Shown: positions 3,409 to 32,261 of the stretch, in pieces
How the letters are laid out: each line of letters starts with the position of its first letter
Position numbering within the stretch: position 1 is the first letter of the stretch
Source of the DNA: an uncultured Pseudomonadota bacterium
GTDB taxonomy: Bacteria > Bdellovibrionota_B > Oligoflexia > Oligoflexales > Bog-1112
DNA: 32,261 nt
Direction of reading: 5' to 3'
Assembly: GCA_937896265.1 (NCBI GenBank)
Contig: CALBMD010000224.1
Span: forward strand, 1-32,261
Translations under genes and position numbers: made by a program
Notes under the pieces: model-generated
The model's database searches: none
The model's input: the letters and a program-made list of their open reading frames with translations, nothing else
Told to the model about the DNA's origin: nothing

Positions 3409-3681
3409 TTACTTTGCCACCTGCTTCTTTGAAAGGTTGTGTTGATCAATCAGAGTCATTACAGCCATCTTGATTACCGCTTGTCTGCCTGTTCCTAGCT
3501 CAGCAACAAATTCGTCGAGCCGATTAAGCATAGGAATGGGGAAGTCAACGTTGACCCTTTGAGATTCAATAAGCGGGGCTTTTCGGACCGGCTTGCTAAA
3601 GTATTGAGATACTTCCTCGCCACGGTCTGCCATGTTAGCTATTGTTTCGGCGTCGATGCTTTTTTTAGATGTTGTCTTCAT
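3409..3681 (-). CDS. brnA: BrnA-type antitoxin (RHH/CopG-like C-terminus)
   Basis: It overlaps the 3' end of the upstream DUF497 toxin gene by 17 nt. The C-terminal VNVDFPIPMLNRLDEFVAELGTGRQAVIKMAV is a ribbon-helix-helix pattern. Confidence 0.8.
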   Translation of the reverse strand: MKTTSKKSIDAETIANMADRGEEVSQYFSKPVRKAPLIESQRVNVDFPIPMLNRLDEFVAELGTGRQAVIKMAVMTLIDQHNLSKKQVAK

Positions 3682-3943
3682 ATTGTTTCCTTTCTCCAGG
3701 TGTTGATCTCCATAATGTCACAAAATGATAATATTCCCCGGTGTCATCTTCTCTTGGTTCATACACCAAAGAAATGAGTTTGTTACCAACGTAACCAATT
3801 ACCAAAAACTGATCCGGATCATCATTCTTCTGAAACTCCACATAATAATGTGAAAAGATAACCTGAGCTTCTTCAAAAGAGCACTTTCTATGCTTGTTCG
3901 CTTTTAGTTCTTTGCTCTTCTTTGGGTCCCAGGTAAAGCGCAC
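3665..3943 (-). CDS. brnT: BrnT-type (DUF497) ribonuclease toxin
   Basis: GTG start follows AGAGGGAA. The N-terminal FTWDPKKSKELKANKHRKCSFEEAQVIF matches the BrnT signature F-WD..K...N..KH.vsFeEA. It ends with a WRSTPGERKQY-like motif. Confidence 0.85.
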   Translation of the reverse strand: MRFTWDPKKSKELKANKHRKCSFEEAQVIFSHYYVEFQKNDDPDQFLVIGYVGNKLISLVYEPREDDTGEYYHFVTLWRSTPGERKQYEDNI

Positions 3944-8328: not shown

Positions 8329-8664
8329 TTAGCTGGCTCGAATAACTTTGATATCACGATAGAGAGTCAAGCATTGTTCTTTTGATTTGTCCATGGCTTC
8401 TAATAGCCTTGAGGCAGCTCCCGATGGCTGTGACAAACCCTGCTCCCAAGACTGGATTGTTTTTGAACTTACGCCAAGTAATTCAGCAAACAAAGGTTGA
8501 CTTAGCCCGATTGCTTTCCGTATCCGCGCTACATCCTCTGGTGAATAATCTATTGTTGGTTTTATTTCCCATTTTGTAATTTTTACATTTGTTTTTTTTC
8601 CTTTGGAAAAATCTTTGACTTCTTCCAAACTCTGCATAAGCAAATCGAAATTTTTCTTATCCAT
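8329..8664 (-). CDS. higA: HigA-2-like HTH (XRE) antitoxin
   Basis: The C-terminal IRKAIGLSQPLFAELLGVSSKTIQSWEQGLSQPSGAASRLLEAM matches the HigA-2/MqsA-like HTH pattern. It overlaps the upstream toxin gene by 8 nt. Confidence 0.85.
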   Translation of the reverse strand: MDKKNFDLLMQSLEEVKDFSKGKKTNVKITKWEIKPTIDYSPEDVARIRKAIGLSQPLFAELLGVSSKTIQSWEQGLSQPSGAASRLLEAMDKSKEQCLTLYRDIKVIRAS

Positions 8665-8995
8665 TTAAATCCTCCTCAATGCTTTTGAGCATTTTTGCTA
8701 CTCTACTCTTTTGTTCTGGTAACAAATCTTCAGATTCATTCTTCACTATGAGAAAAATGAAGAAAATTTTGTCCGCTTTTGCGAAATCCTTATAAAAGAC
8801 TCTGGCTCCGCCTCGTTTACCTCGGCCTGAAGCAGGAACTCTGATTTTTCTTAGCCCGTGGGTCCCTTTAATTACAACGCCAGCATCGGGGGATGCTAGA
8901 AGAGTTCTCTGTAAAGTTCTTAGGTCTTCTTCGCTTAGCTTGGCTTCAGTCCATAACTGCCTGAAAATACTGGTTTCGATGAACTCTCGTATCAT
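8657..8995 (-). CDS. higB: HigB-2-like (RelE superfamily) toxin
   Basis: GTHGLRKIRVPASGRGKRGGARVFY...FFIFLIVKNESEDL closely follows the Vibrio HigB-2-type signature GTGGLRKIRV...GKGKRGG.R.IYY. The operon is toxin-first. Confidence 0.85.
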   Translation of the reverse strand: MIREFIETSIFRQLWTEAKLSEEDLRTLQRTLLASPDAGVVIKGTHGLRKIRVPASGRGKRGGARVFYKDFAKADKIFFIFLIVKNESEDLLPEQKSRVAKMLKSIEEDLNG

Positions 8996-22615: not shown

Positions 22616-22655
22616 TGGCTATTTATGCCCAACGCGCCAAAAAGGTCAATTCATC
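22616..22655. repeat. left terminal inverted repeat
   Basis: TGGCTATTTATGCCCAACGCGCCAAAAAGGTCAATTCATC. It contains the last codons and the stop of tnpR. Confidence 0.9.
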
Positions 22656-23293
22656 TCGCCGCAAGACGCTAGGTTGGATGTTGCTACAATAACTGGTTTT
22701 TCTGACATTTCAGAAACTTTTCTCTTTTCCATATGATAGAAGAAAGTGCGCCGCCCGATACCCAAGGATTTGCAAATTTCATTTGCAGTTTTTTTAGTAT
22801 TTTCATATAGCACTTCTGCTTGCTCGAGTTTGCTTGCTGAGACTTTCGGGCGTCCGCCTGTTTTCCCTCGAGCTTTAGCGGCATTTTTGCCATCTTTTAT
22901 GCGTTCTTGCTTTAGCTCTCGCTCCATCTGGGAGATGGCACCCATCATCGATAAGAAAAATCGGCCTGTGGCGTTTTTTGTGCCGATATCTTCACGCAAA
23001 GATACAATATCGACCCCTTGAGCTTCAAATGTTTGTGAGAGCTGGAGAAGGTGAGCCAGAGACCGACTCATTCGGCTAAGCTCAGCCACTACGATGGTGT
23101 CGCCGGGACGGATAAATTCCAAAAGTTTGGTCCACCCTGGTCGGTCAGATTTTATTCCGCTAATTTTATCTTTGAATATTTTCATGCAACCGGCTCTTTC
23201 AAGAAGGTCTATCTGGCTATCAAGATTTTGATCTCGAGAACTAACACGAGCGTATCCGATCTTTTGGTGACCGAAGGTATCTTCTCTCTTCAT
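22646..23293 (-). CDS. tnpR: serine recombinase / resolvase
   Basis: IGYARVSSRDQNLDSQ carries the catalytic Ser motif. Other matches are GDTIVVAELSRMSRS and a C-terminal HTH (TANEICKSLGIGRRTFFY). A ~30-aa C-terminal extension is present. Confidence 0.9.
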   Translation of the reverse strand: MKREDTFGHQKIGYARVSSRDQNLDSQIDLLERAGCMKIFKDKISGIKSDRPGWTKLLEFIRPGDTIVVAELSRMSRSLAHLLQLSQTFEAQGVDIVSLREDIGTKNATGRFFLSMMGAISQMERELKQERIKDGKNAAKARGKTGGRPKVSASKLEQAEVLYENTKKTANEICKSLGIGRRTFFYHMEKRKVSEMSEKPVIVATSNLASCGEMN

Positions 23294-23439
23294 CGAGCAA
23301 AAACCTCTAAAAGTTCGACTTTACGCACTTTGATTTATGCACTAATATTTGCACTCTTAAAAGTATTGTAAGTCCGTTTGTAAAATTGACAAAGCACTAA
23401 GTGCAAATAGCTATACTTTTTGCACCATCGAAAGCCCAG
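23294..23439. promoter_or_regulatory. candidate res site and divergent promoters
   Basis: The 146-bp tnpR-tnpA gap holds six YGCAC(T) motifs (23324, 23338, 23350, 23394, inverted at 23400, and 23421), including the dyad GCACTAAGTGC. Confidence 0.4.
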
Positions 23440-26400
23440 CATATGAGTTCCGATTCCCGTCGACTGCAAATTTTGACTAACGGAGAAATTGATGATCTCT
23501 ATGCTTTACCAAGTTTTACAGACGAAGATAGGCTTTTATATTTCGATTTAAGTGCAGTGGAGAAAGAGGCTGTTGATGCTACCTATACTATATCAGTGGG
23601 AGCTCACCTGATTCTACAACTAGGATATTTCAAAGCTAAGAGACAAGTTTTTCGGTATAAGCAAGAAAGTGTTCTTGACGATCTACGCTATATCATCGAG
23701 CTTTATTTTCCTGGAACTGATTTGGCAGATCTCAAGATCCCTTCCAAACCAGTTCGTCTTGAGCAAAAAAAAGCAGTCCCTAAAATTTTTGATTATCGAC
23801 TTTGCGATACTAAAATTCAGCTTGAGTTGGAACAGAAGGCACAAAGGCTTGCAATGCTTTCAACTCAGCCAAGCTATATTCTTCGTGAGGCAATGCAATA
23901 TCTTGCACACCAACGTATAGTCGCGCCAAGCTATCGTTTTATGCAGGAGATGATTGGTCGGGTGATGGCCGCTGAACGCAGGAGAATTACCCAATTGCTT
24001 GGGAAGGCTTTGACGACGGCGCATGAAAAACAACTCGATGAACTTTTAAAGGCCGATGAAGGCATGTATCGGATCACCGCATTCAAGCATGAAGCTATGG
24101 ATTTTAGCTATAAAGAACTGAGATCTGAAGTGGAGCGTCGCAAATTCTTTCAACCACTGTACGAGTTTTCCCAGCAATTTCTTGAAACATCAGGAATTTC
24201 AAGTGAAAGTGTCAAATACTACGCGTCTCTGGTCAAATTCTATACTGTCTTTAAGCTACAGCGTATGGCTATATCCACGACACGTCTATATCTTATATGC
24301 TTTGCCTATCATCGCTTTCGTCAGATCAATGATAGTCTGATCGACGCTTTTATCCATTGGGTAGATAAATACGAAAACCAAGCCAAAATAGCTGCAGAAG
24401 CAGCTATGCACAATGCACTTGCGGATGCCTCTGAAAACCTTAAGGCAGCTGGTCAAGTTCTCAATTTATTCGTTGATCTTTCAATACCAAGTGACGCTTC
24501 CTTTACTATGGTAAAGGAAAAAGCATTCTCTATGCTTGATCCGGAACGATTTTCACAGGTATCGGACTATATGCGTAATATTGCTTTTGATAAGGAGGCT
24601 TTCGTTTGGTCTTATTGGACAAAGCTATCACTGACTTTCAAAAGGAATCTACGACAATTATTTACCGACTTGTCCTTTGCTGGCCGTGTGGAAGATGCAC
24701 CGTTATTAGAGGCTGTCACATTCTTGCAAAATATTCTTAGGCAAGGAAAGTCGCTAAGACAGGTTGATCCGTCTACATTCCCGATTGCATTGATTCCAAA
24801 AAATTTGCAGCGGCACCTATTTGTCACGATAGAAGATGAAAAAGACAAGAAGCTGGTCGTTGATCGATACGAGTTCTTAGTTTATCGGTGCCTACGCAAA
24901 GCGCTAGAATCTGGCGATGTATTTGTCGGAGGAAGCACTGAGTATCGGCGTTTTGAAGACGACTTGATTAGCGATATTCGCTGGCAAAACAAGGATTTCA
25001 TTTTGAATGATATTGGTTCACCTGTTTTGCTGACACCAATCCGAGAAACTCTGAATGATTTTCAAATTTCTCTTGAAAAAAAGATAACGGCTGTTAATCA
25101 ACGTATTGCCAATGGACTCAACAAACATATCAAGATCATAGGCTCTGACGATAAACGTCGATGGAAGCTAATCCACCCAAGCACTGAAGAGCCCGTCAGT
25201 CATCAATTTTATGATCAACTGCCTGGAATTTCTCTCCCAGATCTCTTATGGTTTGTCGCAAAAAACACCGGATTTTTTAGCTCCTTCACTCATGTTTTAG
25301 ACCGATATGTCAAGCAAAATGCTGAGCCTCACGAAATTCTTGCCTGTATTGTTGCCATGGGTACCAATATGGGATTATCAAAAATGGCCGAAGTTTCCGG
25401 CCTGACTTCTTCATCGTTGATAACTACGACACGTAATTACGTGAGACTAGAAACACTACACGAAGCTAACAATGCAATTAGCAATGCCATCGCGGCTCTC
25501 CCGCTATTCAAGCTCTTCAATATTCATGACTCAATCCATTCTAGTAGTGATGGCCAGCGAATGGAAACACAAATAAATACAATCAATTCTCGCTATTCAC
25601 CAAAATATTTTGGATTGCATAAAGGCGTCAGCAGCTATACGTTAATAGCCAATCATGTGCCTATTAACGCTAAGATTATTGGGACTCACGAACACGAGAG
25701 TCACTATGTTTTCGATTTACTTTACAATAATACCTCGGATATCAAACCAGAACGCCATTCTACGGATACGCATGGGACCAACCAAGTAAATTTCTGGATT
25801 TTGCACACGTTTGGCTACGATTTTGCTCCGAGATATCGTGATCTGCACAAGAAAATGAGCTCTCTTGTTGGTTTTAAGCACCCAAGCCAATATGACTCCC
25901 TAATTAAGCCTTCTCGAAAGGCAAACCTAGAATTGATTGAAAGCGAATGGCCGAATATTCAACGAATCATGGCATCTTTGGCACAAAAAGATGTGACACA
26001 GGCCACGATAGTTCGAAAGCTAAGCAGCTATAGCAGACAAAACAAAACGATGAAAGCCCTTTGGGAGCTAGAAAATATATGTCGCACCCTATATATTCTT
26101 GACTTTATCGACGACGTAGAACTACGACAGAACGTGCAAAAGGCGCTCAACCGAGGTGAAGCTTATCACCGATTCCGGCGCGCAATTGCTTATGTAAATG
26201 GTGGAAAATTTCACGTTAAAACCTAAGCTGAGCAACAGATATGGAACGAATGCTCCCGACTAATTGCCAACTCAGTGATCTATTACAACACCTTGCTACT
26301 TTCTCGAGTACATAAGCAAAAAGAAGACGCAGGCAACCACGAAGCAATGTCTGTCATTCAAGGAATGTCACCTGTCGCTTGGCAACACGTCAATCTTTTT

Positions 26401-26808: not shown

Positions 26809-26862
26809 TTGACAAGTACGCTAAATAACGTACTATTTAAAAAGTACTTTAATTAACGTACT
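26809..26862 (+). promoter_or_regulatory. promoter and GTAC-dyad operator of the RelE/XRE toxin-antitoxin operon
   Basis: TTGACA (26809-26814), 16 nt, then TACTAT. The dyad AGTACG-N8-CGTACT (26815-26834) is followed by AGTACT and a second AACGTACT. An extended -10 TGATATAAT at 26760-26768 is a second candidate promoter. Confidence 0.5.
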
Positions 26863-26875
26863 AGGGGGCCGATGC

Positions 26876-27700: not shown

Positions 27701-27973
27701 CTACCCTAGGGTTTTCATTGCAATTTTCTCTATTATCCTGGATCGAGAAAGTCTATGTTTACCAGCCGCCTGTTCAATAAGTTCAATTACATTTGGATCT
27801 AATGTAAAGGTCATTGCTACACGTCGCGGCCTTTTTTCGGCCTCTTGAAACCAATCAGAAGTATCCAGTTCATCTTTACTTATAGGCGAGCTACTCACTT
27901 GGGCATCTGGTGGATCAACAAAATCGTCAAACACCTCAACTCTTGTCGGTACAGGTTTCTTTTGCTTTGACAT
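27701..27973 (-). CDS. ribbon-helix-helix centromere-binding protein (ParG-like)
   Basis: The 90-aa protein lies directly downstream of parA (parA stop 27974, its own start 27973). It has an acidic, disordered N-terminus and a C-terminal RHH (VAMTFTLDPNVIELIEQAAGKHRLSRSRIIEKIA). Confidence 0.7.
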   Translation of the reverse strand: MSKQKKPVPTRVEVFDDFVDPPDAQVSSSPISKDELDTSDWFQEAEKRPRRVAMTFTLDPNVIELIEQAAGKHRLSRSRIIEKIAMKTLG

Positions 27974-28747
27974 TTATATATTCTCCATAATGTGAGTAGC
28001 AAATCTCATGTAGGTCTTAGCAACGATCGAAGATGGGAAAGCTTCTCCAAGCGCTTGGTTCTGTCGCTGAGCTTCGAGAACTTTCACAGAGTGTGGAATA
28101 ATCCAATCTCTTAAAAACAATTCTTCCTTCTTCATATTATTTAAGGCTTCTTTAACAACCTTGGCATTTGCCTTTTCATACCCTGTAAGCAAGACACCTA
28201 TCTCTTTCAGAGAGTTGTTCGCCCTTTCTTTAACTCGATCAGCGAATATACGGGCATTGCTAACACCTATTTCCGAATACTCCGACAGGTCCGTCACAAG
28301 CAGGTAGTGCGTCGAAGCAATCAATGCGTTGCGGGTTTCTATACCCAGTACAGGGGGAGTGTCTATCACGATAAAATCAAAGAAACCACCCGTCCTATCC
28401 ACTGCTCTTTTAAGAATGCGGTCCCTATCTATTGAGGCCGATAGTTCCTGTTCTAAGGTTGTTAACCGTCGATCCGCTGGCACCAATATTAAATTACCCC
28501 AATTTCCGCTTGGCTTGACCACGACTTTTTTAACAGGTATGTCGCCTTCGCTCTTAAAAAGATCGTAAGAGCTACTCTTGTGGTCTGCCCGGCCGGTTAG
28601 GTGGATTGTTGAACTAGCCTGCTTGTCTATATCAATCAGAAGAACCTTGTAGTTCTTCGCAAGATAGTAAGCCAACTGAATAACACTCGTAGTTTTACCA
28701 CAGCCACCCTTTTCATTTAGTACAGTTATCACCCGCGTATTTGGCAT
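27974..28747 (-). CDS. parA: ParA partition ATPase (small, type Ib-like)
   Basis: It has the deviant Walker A NEKGGCGKTT and Walker B FIVIDTPP. At 257 aa it lacks an N-terminal HTH. Confidence 0.92.
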   Translation of the reverse strand: MPNTRVITVLNEKGGCGKTTSVIQLAYYLAKNYKVLLIDIDKQASSTIHLTGRADHKSSSYDLFKSEGDIPVKKVVVKPSGNWGNLILVPADRRLTTLEQELSASIDRDRILKRAVDRTGGFFDFIVIDTPPVLGIETRNALIASTHYLLVTDLSEYSEIGVSNARIFADRVKERANNSLKEIGVLLTGYEKANAKVVKEALNNMKKEELFLRDWIIPHSVKVLEAQRQNQALGEAFPSSIVAKTYMRFATHIMENI

Positions 28748-28968
28748 ACATACTCCTGATCGTCAAGCTACGCTTAATTGTACTCTGGAACCATTTATTT
28801 TTGCAATTAATCGCCGACAGGTTCAAAATATCATGCATTATGATATGATGATTGTATCATGTACATAACATGACACTTTACTTTATGGTACACAAGGACT
28901 TAAAATATAATCAATTTCCCATTTAACTTGAAGTTGCCAACAAATCATATATTTTGTGGAGCTAATAT
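28748..28968. promoter_or_regulatory. divergent promoter region / candidate partition site
   Basis: AT-rich gap between parA and the KfrA-like gene. It contains the dyad TATCAT-GCATT-ATGATA (28829-28845) and ATG(N)GTACA motifs at 28859 and 28885. Confidence 0.35.
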
Positions 28969-30327
28969 ATGCGTACTGGACCTGTAACGTACCAAGACGT
29001 ACGAGAGATATGCGATAAGATTAAGTGTACAAAAAAAAATATTACAACACGCAGGATACGAGAAGAACTACAACGCGGATCTTTAAGCACTATCAGCAAG
29101 CATTTAAAAGCTTGGCAAGCTACACGTACAAATGTGTACGAAATCAAAAAGATACACCGTGACACAGACGTTTTGAATGGCGATGTACGATCGTACACAA
29201 CCACCAAGAAACAACCACCTAGTCATACCAACATGACCGGCACCAATGTACACGATATAAAAGAAGCCAATCTTAGCGTACACACTAAACAACACCCTGT
29301 ACATCCACAAACTGGCGACCAAAAGGCCATGGCTGACATGGTACAAGAGGTTGGAAACCTGGCGGCGACATTTACGGAAGCTACAAAGCAATCTGAAGCC
29401 GTCCAAGCTAATCTTGCCGAAAAATCACAGGCTGCTGCCATTTCAGAAGTCAAAGCTGCGAACCAAAAGGCCCTTACCGACATGGCGGAGGAGATTAGAA
29501 ATCTAGTGGCAGCATTTACGGAAGCTACAGAGCAATCTGACGCTGACCAAGCTAATCAGGGCAAAAAGATACAGGCCGCTATATCCGAAGTTAAATCGGA
29601 TGTACAAGAATCTATATGTACACTAGCGAACGAGGTTGCAAAGCTAGCAACACTCAAGGCTCCTGATGAACAAACCGCCAGTAAGAAGGTAGATATCGCT
29701 CCCGAACACTTTGCTTGGCAGGATTTCTCGCTTCTTATCACAAGCCCCTCAGCCTTTTTTCTCTCCGTCGCCGTCTTAGCCATAACTGGCCTTCTAGTGT
29801 TTTTCCAAACCTCCGCCTATATTACGGGCGGCCTTGGCAGTGCCTCACTACCCATCGCCGCCGTTTGCGAGCTTAGCTTAGTTGCTCTTACTATCTTTTT
29901 TTCAGCCAAAATGCAGAAAAAAACCGCCGCCTTCTTGTTTCTTGCTGTATTCGGCTATGTCTTAGCCACCATGAGCTATGATCTTGCCTCAACATCGATC
30001 CAAGAGGTCACGACAGCGACTACAAATAATAAGCAGACTGCCTCAATTGAAACCCAGATAGAAACCTATATCGAAGCGTTTCAAACCGCGACAAAAAAGC
30101 AGGAAAATGGCAATATGGCTAAATGGTCCTCGAAAATAGATGATGCCAAAAAAGAACTTACCAACTTGCAGACAACGGCAAAAAGCAGCGATACGGCACG
30201 ACTAATTGAAGCAAAATGCTCGGGGATGATCGTACTTAGAGCGTTGCTCATGTTGCTCAACGCTTTCTTTGTACATGCACTCATCGGGATTTTTAAGAGA
30301 AACAACGAACAAGTCATTGCAATATAG
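28969..30327 (+). CDS. KfrA-N-like DNA-binding protein with repeat-containing helical middle region and C-terminal transmembrane segments
   Basis: The N-terminus VTYQDVREICDKI...TTRRIREELQRGSLSTISKHLKAW fits the KfrA_N pattern. The middle holds two ~47-aa repeats. The C-terminus has four hydrophobic helices (e.g. AFFLSVAVLAITGLLVFF, LPIAAVCELSLVALTIFF, AAFLFLAVFGYVLATM, VLRALLMLLNAFFVHALIGIF). Confidence 0.7.
   Translation: MRTGPVTYQDVREICDKIKCTKKNITTRRIREELQRGSLSTISKHLKAWQATRTNVYEIKKIHRDTDVLNGDVRSYTTTKKQPPSHTNMTGTNVHDIKEANLSVHTKQHPVHPQTGDQKAMADMVQEVGNLAATFTEATKQSEAVQANLAEKSQAAAISEVKAANQKALTDMAEEIRNLVAAFTEATEQSDADQANQGKKIQAAISEVKSDVQESICTLANEVAKLATLKAPDEQTASKKVDIAPEHFAWQDFSLLITSPSAFFLSVAVLAITGLLVFFQTSAYITGGLGSASLPIAAVCELSLVALTIFFSAKMQKKTAAFLFLAVFGYVLATMSYDLASTSIQEVTTATTNNKQTASIETQIETYIEAFQTATKKQENGNMAKWSSKIDDAKKELTNLQTTAKSSDTARLIEAKCSGMIVLRALLMLLNAFFVHALIGIFKRNNEQVIAI
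29325..29600 (+). repeat. tandem duplication of ~141-144 bp (two copies) inside the KfrA-like ORF
   Basis: CATTTACGGAAGCTACA recurs at 29369 and 29513. The protein repeats are KAMADMVQEVGNLAATFTEATKQSEAVQANL... and KALTDMAEEIRNLVAAFTEATEQSDADQANQ... Confidence 0.7.
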
Positions 30328-30358
30328 TCTAAACTACTCAACTTGGGGGGGGATTTTG

Positions 30359-32110
30359 ATGACGACTTTAGGTGCAGTAAACCTTGCAGAGAAGATTTTA
30401 ACGCGTACCAAAGAGAAAGAAATTAGGTACCATGAAGCCAACCCTACAAAACCACCAATTGAATACAAACCTTTTCCCACTGTCGAAACAGCAGAACTGC
30501 CTGAAGGCAACCATCAATTACAAGCAATAGAGCCATGTGCCGCCTGTACAGATAAGTTTTTGATGGCAGAAGGACAGGAAGGCACCATCATTGCAACGAC
30601 CTGTACTGTCTGCGTACCATTTAACAGCAACTCATGGGCGGTTGATGCAAAAATTCATGCAATAGGAGCCGCAGAAGTACCTAATAGGTATTTCAAAGCT
30701 CTGACTAGAGAAAACATTCGCCCTGAAATCTTAGAGGTAGCTGAGTCACTAATTTCTCAACAAAACAAAAACCCATTCCTTTTTTTCCACGGCGGTATCG
30801 GAACTGGTAAAACCCATTCTGCAGCACATATAATGCTAAACTATCTACAAAAGACGAATCTCTCTTGTTTTTATATCCCAGTATATGAATATCTAGAATT
30901 GAATCGTAACCGTAGCGCGTACGGTTTTGAGCACGGAAAACTAAGATCAAATACACAACATGCTTTTAAGCATGTAAGAGATCGATCAAAAAATGTTGAT
31001 TTACTGATACTCGATGAACTTGGGCAAGAAGTTCTTACCACAGATCAGCAAAAATCAGTGTTTGATTTGTTAGACTCAAGATATAGGTCAAACAAGCCAA
31101 CAATCTTGATCTCTAATCATTGTGAAAACAAGGCGATTAGTTTAGATGGTAAGATTCTATCTGAGCTCATTGGATCAAGGATTGCATCGAGAATTAAGTC
31201 CGCAAAGCTTGTGTACTTTAGCGGCGAAGATTATAGAGTAACAAAAGAACATAGCGAAGTTATTACTGAAGAAGAGGCTGAGAAATTTAAAATGAATGAG
31301 AAGATACTTACGCATAGCGATGACGAACACCAGATTATGACTTGGGTCACCAGAATATCTGCTTTTAAAACGGTTTCCACCCAAGAAAGGAAAGATCTAA
31401 CTTATATCTATAATGGAGAGGAGAGAGATTCTGATCGACGCGAGCCTTCTATTTATGAAGATATTTGGGTAAAGGGTGACAGCTTAATAATTCACGGCCC
31501 AATTTGTGACCAAGAAGATGAAAAGCTCTACTGTTGGTTGGTCAAGGAGCTAACAAATCAACATACTAAAGGACACCTAGGGCTAACGATAAATCTTAGT
31601 TTTCGCTATATTCTTCAAGGTCTTGGCTTATCAAGCAGCAGCGGCGAAAACATCAAAAGAGTACGTAGGCAACTTGATCGATTAAACAGGATGTCTCTTT
31701 CTTTTTCCAATGCAAAAGGACACAAATGGTCTGGCCCCTTAATAACAGATCTTGAGCAATTTGGTCAAAGCTCAGACCAAAAATTGAAAATAAGCTTTAG
31801 TCGATGCATGATCCCCTTTTACAGACTTAATGCCTACACAACGTTTGATAGAATAACAGCTAGAAAACTAAAAGGCGATAGTGCAACATTGTACTTTTTT
31901 TATATATCTCACTCAGAATCTAGACCTATTACATTAAATCACTTCAAAGGACTTTTAGCCCTTAGCGACGAAATAGATCATAAAGAAACGATGAGACGTG
32001 CCAAAAAAATGTTAGATAATTTGATAAAAGCAAGCGTACTAGACCCAAAAGAATCTTTTATTAAAGGTGGTAAAATCTTTACTCAATTACTATGCCCCAT
32101 GCCTCAATAA
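30359..32110 (+). CDS. DnaC/IstB-like AAA+ ATPase fused to a RepA/TrfA-like initiator domain
   Basis: Motifs are CAAC...CTVC near the N-terminus, Walker A FFHGGIGTGKTH, Walker B LLILDELGQE and ILISNH. The C-terminal ~270 aa (SSSGENIKRVRRQLDRLNRMSLSF...ATLYFFYISH...) resemble plasmid RepA/TrfA initiators. ATG 30359 lies 6 nt after a G8 tract, and the ORF is open from 30269. Confidence 0.7.
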   Translation: MTTLGAVNLAEKILTRTKEKEIRYHEANPTKPPIEYKPFPTVETAELPEGNHQLQAIEPCAACTDKFLMAEGQEGTIIATTCTVCVPFNSNSWAVDAKIHAIGAAEVPNRYFKALTRENIRPEILEVAESLISQQNKNPFLFFHGGIGTGKTHSAAHIMLNYLQKTNLSCFYIPVYEYLELNRNRSAYGFEHGKLRSNTQHAFKHVRDRSKNVDLLILDELGQEVLTTDQQKSVFDLLDSRYRSNKPTILISNHCENKAISLDGKILSELIGSRIASRIKSAKLVYFSGEDYRVTKEHSEVITEEEAEKFKMNEKILTHSDDEHQIMTWVTRISAFKTVSTQERKDLTYIYNGEERDSDRREPSIYEDIWVKGDSLIIHGPICDQEDEKLYCWLVKELTNQHTKGHLGLTINLSFRYILQGLGLSSSSGENIKRVRRQLDRLNRMSLSFSNAKGHKWSGPLITDLEQFGQSSDQKLKISFSRCMIPFYRLNAYTTFDRITARKLKGDSATLYFFYISHSESRPITLNHFKGLLALSDEIDHKETMRRAKKMLDNLIKASVLDPKESFIKGGKIFTQLLCPMPQ

Positions 32111-32212
32111 ACAGGTTTTGTTTTCCCCTCTCCCAACAGCAACAAAGGTATGACCCGATGACATGGTGAACACTTTTGTCCGACGACATGGTTTACACTC
32201 CCTCCTTGAGGA

Positions 32213-32250: not shown

Positions 32251-32261
32251 GAAAGGGTATT

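Follow-up and report, generated by a model that had tools for sequence, protein, structure and literature searches.

A GTACA box array within and upstream of the gene for its probable reader, a KfrA_N fusion protein of a tailed phage-plasmid

The maintenance module of a tailed phage-plasmid on contig CALBMD010000224.1, a stretch of 32,261 nt from a wastewater metagenome that was analysed at its full length and is called the window below, contains a cluster of GTAC tetramers that is real and denser than coding explains. Approximately 14 (T/C)GTACA boxes and three degenerate GTAC make up this cluster, and comparison of related sequences indicates that they are likely to be the target array of a KfrA_N helix-turn-helix (HTH) head, which begins the protein encoded at 28969–30327. 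The array extends from the divergent parA/kfrA promoter region through the head- and linker-coding parts of that gene. Autoregulatory sites of the KfrA-like protein were one of the functions proposed in the first-pass annotation of this DNA, and the protein has proved to be the sole candidate reader that tracks the boxes, which are found in 8/8 loci with a KfrA_N head and in 0/5 others. The module consists, in this order, of a ParG-like gene, parA, a divergent intergenic region of 221 bp, the KfrA-like open reading frame (ORF) of 452 amino acids (aa), and a DnaC-like/Rep fusion. The phage character of the element is evident from genes for a terminase, a lambda-type portal, a capsid, a sheath, a tape measure, and a baseplate.

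Density of the GTAC cluster

The window contains 62 GTAC, of which 45 lie outside 28780–29621 at a frequency near the shuffle expectation. The other 17 occur within this interval, at 28780, 28861, 28888, 28973, 28989, 28999, 29027, 29126, 29136, 29185, 29193, 29248, 29278, 29299, 29341, 29602, and 29618, with 12 of them inside 28973–29344; this exact recount agrees with the numbers in the first-pass annotation. The background had been put there at one tetramer per few hundred bp, which is correct in direction and slightly generous in magnitude, as the measured rate is 1.43 per kb (~1/700 bp). The 12 GTAC in 372 bp correspond to a Poisson p of 1.9e-12, or ~1.6e-10 when corrected for the window scan. 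Among the infrequent tetramers, GTAC alone attains so high a local count anywhere in the window.

Several boxes encode Val-His, Val-Gln, or Val-Tyr, and two lie in similar heptapeptides, TNVYEIK (residues 54–60) and TNVHDIK (residues 92–98), both present as previously claimed. The cluster might accordingly be a by-product of coding, caused by the repeated peptides or by amino acid or codon bias. The codon-preserving nulls that the annotation had suggested nevertheless fail to reproduce the GTAC density in the first 126 codons.

Synonymous codons permuted over the whole ORF: mean 3.8 GTAC, maximum 10; at least 12 in 0/5000
Resampling by the codon usage of the window: mean 2.5 GTAC; at least 12 in 0/5000
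Codon-order shuffle: mean 2.8 GTAC; at least 12 in 0/5000
Pool restricted to the same 126 codons, which carries over the bias of the segment itself: mean 6.5 GTAC; at least 12 in 4/5000

The 12 in-gene sites at 28973–29344 use all three reading frames (six in frame 0 and three each in frames 1 and 2). Three of the 17 GTAC lie in non-coding DNA 5′ of the ORF, two of them clear GTACA boxes, and the other 14 are inside the KfrA-like gene. GTACA is also enriched in the unalignable linkers and non-coding upstream regions of the seven relatives described below. The chance that the cluster merely reflects coding is negligible. The broader proposal of the first-pass annotation, an array of binding sites in which coding and DNA-level constraints overlap, is backed both by these nulls and by the conservation in relatives.

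Layout of the boxes

GTACA is present on one or both strands at 14/17 sites, usually with T or C on its 5′ side, and the flanks beyond are uninformative; the extended motif is (T/C)GTACA. The core measures 5–6 bp, occurs in both orientations, and recurs at irregular spacings of 8 to 261 bp. Tandem Repeats Finder gave no match in the box region. The gene and its boxes are arranged as follows, with signed positions counted from the gene start.

28969–30327, + strand: KfrA_N-TM gene, 452 aa, encoding a head, a disordered linker, a coiled coil, and four transmembrane (TM)-like helices
28860–28892, unstranded: promoter-proximal boxes, TGTACA at 28860–28865 and GGTACA at 28887–28892
28973–29031, unstranded: boxes in the 5′ head-coding part, degenerate CGTACT (+4), CGTACC (+20), and CGTACG (+30), and a full TGTACA at +57 to +62 (29026–29031)
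29126–29345, unstranded: main in-gene cluster of eight boxes (CGTACA 29125, TGTACG 29135, TGTACG 29184, CGTACA 29192, TGTACA 29247, CGTACA 29277, TGTACA 29298, and GGTACA 29340), encoding residues 53–125, the disordered linker right past the head
29601–29606 and 29617–29622, unstranded: distal pair of TGTACA palindromes in the coiled-coil-coding part, with no counterpart there in relatives

The promoter-proximal boxes are placed on promoter-like elements. TGTACA at 28860–28865 lies ~10 nt past the −10-like TATGAT of a + strand promoter-like site (28822–28849) and at the same time constitutes the −35 hexamer of a parA-facing promoter-like site on the − strand (28865–28837), while GGTACA at 28887–28892 is situated in the spacer of another + strand promoter-like site (28877–28906). 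The three degenerate sites at +4, +20, and +30 appear to be weakened copies of positionally conserved boxes, because full GTACA boxes occupy these positions in the relatives L003, L008, and L011. ACGTAC direct repeats at 28988 and 28998 can be read directly from the sequence, as had been noted.

The main cluster holds two inverted pairs with centre spacings of 10 and 8 bp. The sequence at 29184–29197, TGTACGATCGTACA, is a perfect 14-nt palindrome, in agreement with its earlier description. CGTACA-AATG-TGTACG (29125–29140) had been described in the same way; its inverted arms are perfect, but its 4-nt spacer is asymmetric. The distal pair likely belongs to the array, with less certainty than the other boxes.

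Two further groups of GTAC were observed in the window. A second, weaker cluster of eight sites in 449 bp (30232–30680; p ~2e-7) overlies the 3′ end of the kfrA-like gene and the 5′ end of rep. It was not added to the array: its sites are mostly GTACC, only 3/8 being of the GTACA type, and the cluster is missing in L003 and L006, while part of it recurs in the box-less L001. The other group comprises four GTAC at an exact 14-bp period (26816, 26830, 26844, and 26858; within 26810–26865), which read (A/C)GTACT rather than GTACA. They lie within and just past a TTGACA −35-like hexamer, directly 5′ of genes for a HigB/ParE-like toxin (26876) and an HTH antitoxin (27172). Probably they serve this toxin-antitoxin pair as its operator and have no relation to the KfrA boxes.

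Architecture of the KfrA_N-TM protein

The head of the protein (aa 7–56) matches Pfam KfrA_N (PF11740) in hmmscan with 41.3 bits, against a gathering cut-off of 26.1, and an E-value of 3e-10. The AlphaFold2 (AF2) model displays a three-helix head at aa 1–50, with predicted local distance difference test (pLDDT) scores of 82–95, followed by a linker at aa 57–143 with pLDDT <50. Further on, the model contains a long helix or coiled coil of ~110 residues (aa 118–228) with a 48-aa tandem repeat. At the DNA level, this repeat is a tandem duplication of 144 bp with 76% identity (29309–29436 and 29453–29580), encoding two 48-residue coiled-coil repeats. A similar 162-bp duplication occurs in L001, whose two GTAC (+405 and +567) lie inside the copies.

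Hydropathy places four hydrophobic TM-like helices at aa 252–340 and 412–444. Instead of the canonical long, soluble coiled-coil tail, the C-terminal 200 residues form a conserved domain with these four TM-like helices, and the protein is thus a KfrA_N fusion rather than a canonical KfrA. Neither a sequence search of the PDB nor a Foldseek search of the AF2 model against the PDB returned anything meaningful (best Foldseek E-value, 0.6). Linkers of this family contain the dipeptides Val-His, Val-Gln, and Cys-Thr, the translated footprint of GTACA. Since the segment encoded by the main cluster has pLDDT <50, a DNA-level constraint there is of little cost to the protein.

Boxes and heads in related loci

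Close homologues of the 452-aa protein are very few. Near and distant DNA and protein searches of plasmid and phage collections gave no relative of the module, only DnaC-like loaders at 26–31% identity. The full protein, Rep, the N-terminal alignment, and the family alignment found no related loci in genome, viral, and metagenome collections, and a word-indexed protein search with a 61-aa head alignment yielded no candidates. Relatives were found by an exhaustive representative search, and their contigs were retrieved through the exact protein sequence. The family defined by the four-TM domain comprises ~50 representative clusters with two kinds of N-terminus: a KfrA_N head (type A) or a short basic motif, PDxxLTxEQxRRRERNxRY (type B). 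Eight type A loci (the window, L003, L005, L006, L007, L008, L011, and L012) and five type B loci (L001, L013, L015, L016, and L017) were compared by ranking 5-mers according to their enrichment from −300 to +450 around the gene start, with no motif assumed.

GTACA is the top 5-mer in 8/8 type A loci, with p-values from 6e-11 to 1e-24. These loci contain 13–23 strand-wise GTACA in the interval (a palindromic TGTACA counts twice) versus 1–26 in the rest of each source. In the type B loci, all five with the same four-TM domain and the different basic N-terminus, the interval contains 0–1 GTACA. The distribution of 8/8 versus 0/5 gives a Fisher p of ~8e-4, calculated by hand, for lineages that are not phylogenetically independent. 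The proteins of the type A relatives are 21–57% identical to the window protein in this comparison, and all carry KfrA_N. Their heads and that of the window protein are 45–68% identical in every pair, with invariant G37, S38, L39, T41, I42, S43, K47, and W49 (GSL-TIS---K-W).

The positions of the boxes are also conserved. Upstream of the gene, the seven relatives have one to six boxes, 22–56 nt before the start codon and usually right past a −10-like element. Within the gene, the type A loci have a few boxes at +4 to +58 and almost none in the TM-coding part. All eight share an in-gene cluster at approximately +160 to +405, which starts 0–25 codons past the end of the head-coding part and precedes the TM-coding part. 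In-gene box counts exceed those of synonymous-codon shuffles in 6/8 loci (0–3 of 3000 shuffles). As the linkers are unalignable between lineages, the boxes appear to have been kept through sequence turnover. Two cases illustrate the range: L003/L004, another phage-plasmid whose protein is 60% identical to that of the window, has ten GTACA boxes from −44 to +405, and L005, a distant relative that aligns in the head and membrane domain only, carries TGTACA six times at −123 to −27 and three times at +243 to +271.

Exchange of the head is accompanied by exchange of the box. In L001/L002, where the N-terminus has been replaced and identity over the C-terminal three quarters is 67%, GTACA boxes are missing before +405. 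Arrays of another word, TTAAGAC or AAGACG(TCT), occur in three of the five type B loci, with the same layout from the upstream region into the gene's own linker-coding part. Upstream of its gene, L013 (4317–4706) shows three GTCTTAAGAC palindromes, and four TAAGAC half-sites follow at +116 to +170. L016 (5051–5315) has ten AGACG half-sites, some as AGACGTCT palindromes, with nine at +51 to +307 and one at −225. L017 (50–590) has ~10 TTAAGAC(G) boxes from −200 to +330 (TCTTAA, 10 versus 0; p 3e-14). The sequences indicate that head and box word have been exchanged jointly on at least one occasion. This swap argues more strongly than any other observation that the reader of the array is the N-terminal domain of the same gene's protein and that selection has acted on the in-gene position. 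The type B motif has no Pfam or NCBIfam family match; it is reminiscent of a bZIP basic region.

Several points weigh against assigning the array to the KfrA_N head. The eight positive loci among the 13 share the head by descent, and the co-variation represents a few independent events rather than 13. The in-gene boxes of L005 and L012 alone do not exceed the synonymous-codon null, and the type B loci L001 and L015 lack a clear box array, so that not every member of the wider family has such an array in its gene. The window sites at +4, +20, and +30 lack the A or T extension. A 6-bp palindrome also offers little length to a dimeric HTH, for which the recognition unit may be a single box or a pair 8–14 bp apart. 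A look for RNA runs from the wastewater metagenome gave none. Membrane insertion, for its part, is predicted only by hydropathy and by a model of low confidence (predicted template modelling score, 0.26).

Other elements accompany the boxes in some relatives. L006 (430–531) and L007 (1700–1898) share a GTTACACGTGTAAC palindrome and TGTTGCAC repeats 5′ of their TGTACA boxes; these are presumably sites of other regulators, possibly their ParG-like proteins.

Other candidate readers

The boxes lie between a partition operon and a replication gene, whose products had both been named as possible readers. The features that bear on them are the following.

27701–27973, − strand: ParG-like small ribbon-helix-helix (RHH) protein, 90 aa, second gene of the divergent par operon; a weak assignment
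27974–28747, − strand: ParA-type partition ATPase, 257 aa (Pfam AAA_31 1e-36 and CbiA 1e-17; PHROG ParA-like 5e-44)
28830–28860, unstranded: five ATCAT/ATGAT boxes in 31 bp, starting at 28830, 28840, 28845, 28848, and 28856, between the divergent promoters
30359–32110, + strand: DnaC/IstB-like AAA+ protein with a C-terminal Rep-like fusion (Pfam IstB_IS21 and Bac_DnaA; PHROG DnaC-like helicase loader 5e-28)
32155–32199, + strand: two 20-nt direct repeats, CCGAYGACATGGTKWACACT (CCGATGACATGGTGAACACT / CCGACGACATGGTTTACACT), 25 bp apart and 45 nt past the rep stop

RHH centromere-binding proteins read arrays of very short boxes, and ParG of TP228 binds arrays of short tetramer boxes. A centromere or operator for the ParG-like RHH protein of the type Ib-like par operon would also suit the start of the array in the parA-proximal intergenic region, where one box forms the −35-like hexamer of the parA-facing promoter-like site. 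Moreover, a divergent parA and a small ORF are constant neighbours of the KfrA_N-TM gene in related loci. The small protein itself falls below the Pfam cut-off of 20.5 bits for RHH_1 (18 bits, E 0.0028) and matches the PHROG "transcriptional repressor" at E 7e-4. What argues against it as the reader is that related repeats do not accompany related proteins. The GTACA loci contain at least three mutually unrelated ParG-like groups: BLAST connects the window protein to none of its positional counterparts in other GTACA loci, L003/L007 stand apart from L008/L011/L012, and the GTACA-less L001 groups with L003 and L005. ParA proteins are mostly 22–32% identical, and their closest pair in a first-round pairwise comparison, L001/L005 (37%), is split on box presence. 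Most boxes are located 200–600 bp inside the neighbouring gene, beyond its promoter. Separate arrays lie nearer parA, namely the ATCAT/ATGAT boxes of the window and an analogous but different GTMATAC ×5 array on the parA side of the TGTACA boxes in L005. At the window-wide rate of 2.9 ATCAT/ATGAT per kb, ~0.09 would be expected in 31 bp, against the five boxes at 28830–28860. These five differ from the GTACA boxes, suit the ParG-like protein better, and may form its operator or centromere. We consider it improbable that the GTACA boxes serve this protein.

The array also stands directly 5′ of rep, in the same probable operon, and an array inside the linker-encoding stretch of a gene for a DNA-binding protein, with a helicase-loader-like gene coming next, resembles the lambda O-P arrangement. 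The boxes could then be iterons, or an origin, for the Rep fusion, embedded upstream like the lambda origin in gene O. The G+C content of the neighbourhood reaches its minimum of 0.33–0.35 at 28800–29100, a stretch that lies 5′ of the main cluster and not beside it. Rep and boxes are nevertheless uncoupled among the relatives. Rep of L001 shares 62% overall identity with window Rep, and its C-terminal part 71% identity with that of L003 Rep, the closest such pair, yet L001 is devoid of GTACA boxes, whereas L005, L008, and L011 have the array and no such Rep beside the gene. Scattered 5–6 bp boxes in both orientations with uneven spacing are unlike tandem iterons of 17–22 bp, and the module contains no DnaA-box-like site. 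The Rep fusion is accordingly a very doubtful reader.

The repeat pair at 32155–32199 is a better iteron candidate for Rep on sequence grounds than the GTACA boxes. Two copies are visible because the window stops at 32261, and related contigs also end at or just past rep; the pair and these contig breaks fit a repeat-rich origin there. The mechanical ORF of the Rep fusion begins at 30269 (TTG), and the ATG at 30359 (M31), invariant in the homologue alignment, is the probable start. As this start lies 32 nt past the kfrA-like stop, the two genes are probably co-transcribed. A faint Rep3_N match is present on the L003 homologue of the fusion. The gene downstream varies among loci (Rep fusion, DsbA, or Cdd1), and none of the ParG-like proteins, ParA, Rep, and the downstream gene tracks GTACA; the KfrA_N head alone does.

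GTAC is also a classic 4-bp restriction-modification word, and GATC clusters at oriC and at P1 oriR are read through their methylation state. The window encodes an orphan N6/N4 DNA methylase in its phage part (4197–4961; Pfam N6_N4_Mtase 6e-16), and this enzyme or one of the host might methylate the GTAC sites for such a readout. The conserved word, however, exceeds GTAC, as the 3′ A and the 5′ T or C are kept; GTAC is neither avoided nor enriched over the rest of the window; and the array follows the type of the N-terminal domain, with another word in the same layout in type B. Methylation as the basis of the array has very little probability. If the target of the window methylase includes GTAC, methylation could still modulate binding to the boxes or their occupancy. 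An NtcA-like GTA-N8-TAC reading of the 29126/29136 pair was rejected as the trivial result of two GTAC 10 bp apart.

Proposed action of the KfrA_N-TM protein

If the boxes are targets of the KfrA_N head, dimers or oligomers of the protein, joined by the coiled coil, would bind to the boxes where transcription starts and keep the kfrA-like/rep operon repressed. The parA promoter might be repressed as well, its −35-like hexamer being one of the boxes. Analogy and the position of the boxes give autorepression of this operon, with possible co-regulation of parA, somewhat better than even chances.

The many in-gene boxes would raise local occupancy and thereby build a large nucleoprotein complex, as KfrA of RA3 and R751 does on repeated operators. 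Such a complex would hold the phage-plasmid at the cytoplasmic membrane, beside the partition and replication genes, because the protein ends in four TM helices. The architecture makes this anchoring by a multi-box complex conceivable, and we propose it tentatively.

The in-gene position might, in addition, make the protein act in cis, with the nascent head capturing boxes on the very copy that encodes it. Under coupled transcription and translation, the folded head would leave the ribosome while still tethered beside the box cluster, and the four TM helices would then insert co-translationally, so that each phage-plasmid copy would be attached to the membrane by its own product. Such a self-loading membrane anchor for an extrachromosomal prophage would be a modern form of Jacob–Brenner–Cuzin membrane attachment, and the type B relatives, with their basic N-terminus and TTAAGAC boxes, would represent a second, independently specified version of the device. 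We regard this cis action as unlikely.

Comparison with known systems

KfrA proteins are widespread plasmid-maintenance factors that bind a few repeats at their own promoter and contact the partition machinery. The closest known systems are KfrA of the IncU plasmid RA3 with its operator OK and KfrA of the IncP-1 plasmids RK2 and R751. The KfrA protein of RA3, with its HTH at residues 29–52, binds five 9-nt TGTATTGTA repeats, which occur in both orientations and overlap its own promoter; it requires two or more adjacent repeats, and four for full repression (PMC7783346). Operator binding by RA3 KfrA is required for plasmid stability, and the protein interacts with IncC and KorB (PMC7783346). 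KfrA of R751 and RA3 polymerises into filaments on the cognate sites (PMC7821693). The window protein resembles RA3 KfrA in that its KfrA_N HTH head occupies the same residues and leads into a long α-helical part. Its gene likewise lies beside a parA-type partition operon, and the short-repeat array, its presumed target, reaches promoter-like elements of the gene (the RA3 repeat is also TGTA-rich). It differs in the box, (T)GTACA; in the array, three times larger, with ~14–17 boxes over 840 bp versus five repeats in ~50 bp; in the location of most boxes inside its own coding sequence; and in the replacement of the soluble coiled-coil tail by the four-helix membrane domain. The carrier is a tailed phage-plasmid rather than a conjugative broad-host-range plasmid, and kfrB/kfrC and KorA/KorB are not present.

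Cis sites inside the gene of their own reader have precedents. Lambda has four 18–19 bp iterons and an A+T-rich unwinding region inside gene O; O is a soluble initiator, and the following gene P encodes a helicase loader. The common features are sites for an N-terminal domain in its own linker-coding part and a helicase-loader-type gene as the next one. Unlike the lambda origin, the boxes of the window are scattered and 5–6 bp long, relatives that lack the loader/Rep gene have the array too, and the KfrA_N protein is predicted to be membrane-anchored. A single 16-bp parS site lies within spo0J/parB, and clt repeats lie within the Streptomyces traB gene, which encodes the FtsK-like TraB. Here, too, cis sites of a DNA-segregation or DNA-transfer protein are located inside its own gene. 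The protein families (ParB and TraB) and the site types are other ones, and parS is not an array.

The operator of YefM-YoeB contains paired TGTACA cores about one helical turn apart, just 5′ of the start codon, and mediates autorepression (PMC1802561). Its core is identical to that of the boxes in the window, but it is read by a Phd/YefM fold, comprises two boxes, and is not intragenic. A YefM-type antitoxin was rejected as a reader: the window has no Phd/YefM gene, and the boxes track KfrA_N.

For the proposed tethering, a functional precedent is p16.7 of phi29, which binds DNA, is anchored in the membrane, and organises the replication of phage DNA there. Both are phage-encoded proteins in which a DNA-binding domain and a coiled coil are combined with a membrane anchor, a predicted one in the window protein. 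They differ in topology, as the p16.7 anchor is N-terminal, and p16.7 binds with no sequence specificity, has no box array, and is unrelated in sequence.

The system varies the KfrA operator theme in a new way, and its intragenic layout is both conserved and unusual. In this rare branch, a KfrA_N head has been fused to a membrane domain and boxes have spread into the gene's own coding sequence. No description of a membrane-anchored KfrA_N protein or of intragenic KfrA boxes was found in the literature searched, which did not cover all journals. If the head binds the boxes, these loci would offer a clean natural system for asking whether plasmids and plasmid-prophages are held at the membrane, provide a way to test whether in-gene sites make DNA-binding proteins cis-acting, and show a DNA motif shaping a disordered protein linker. 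For annotation, position by itself is no sufficient basis for assigning the par-proximal repeats of such modules to ParG or Rep.

Other features of the window

Three toxin-antitoxin pairs are encoded in the window: HigB/HTH, RelE/HTH (8329–8995), and a BrnT-like pair (3409–3943). The interval 22646–26226, between the baseplate and tail genes and the maintenance module, contains a resolvase and a 941-aa Tn3-family-like transposase ORF; a transposon has thus landed in the phage-plasmid.

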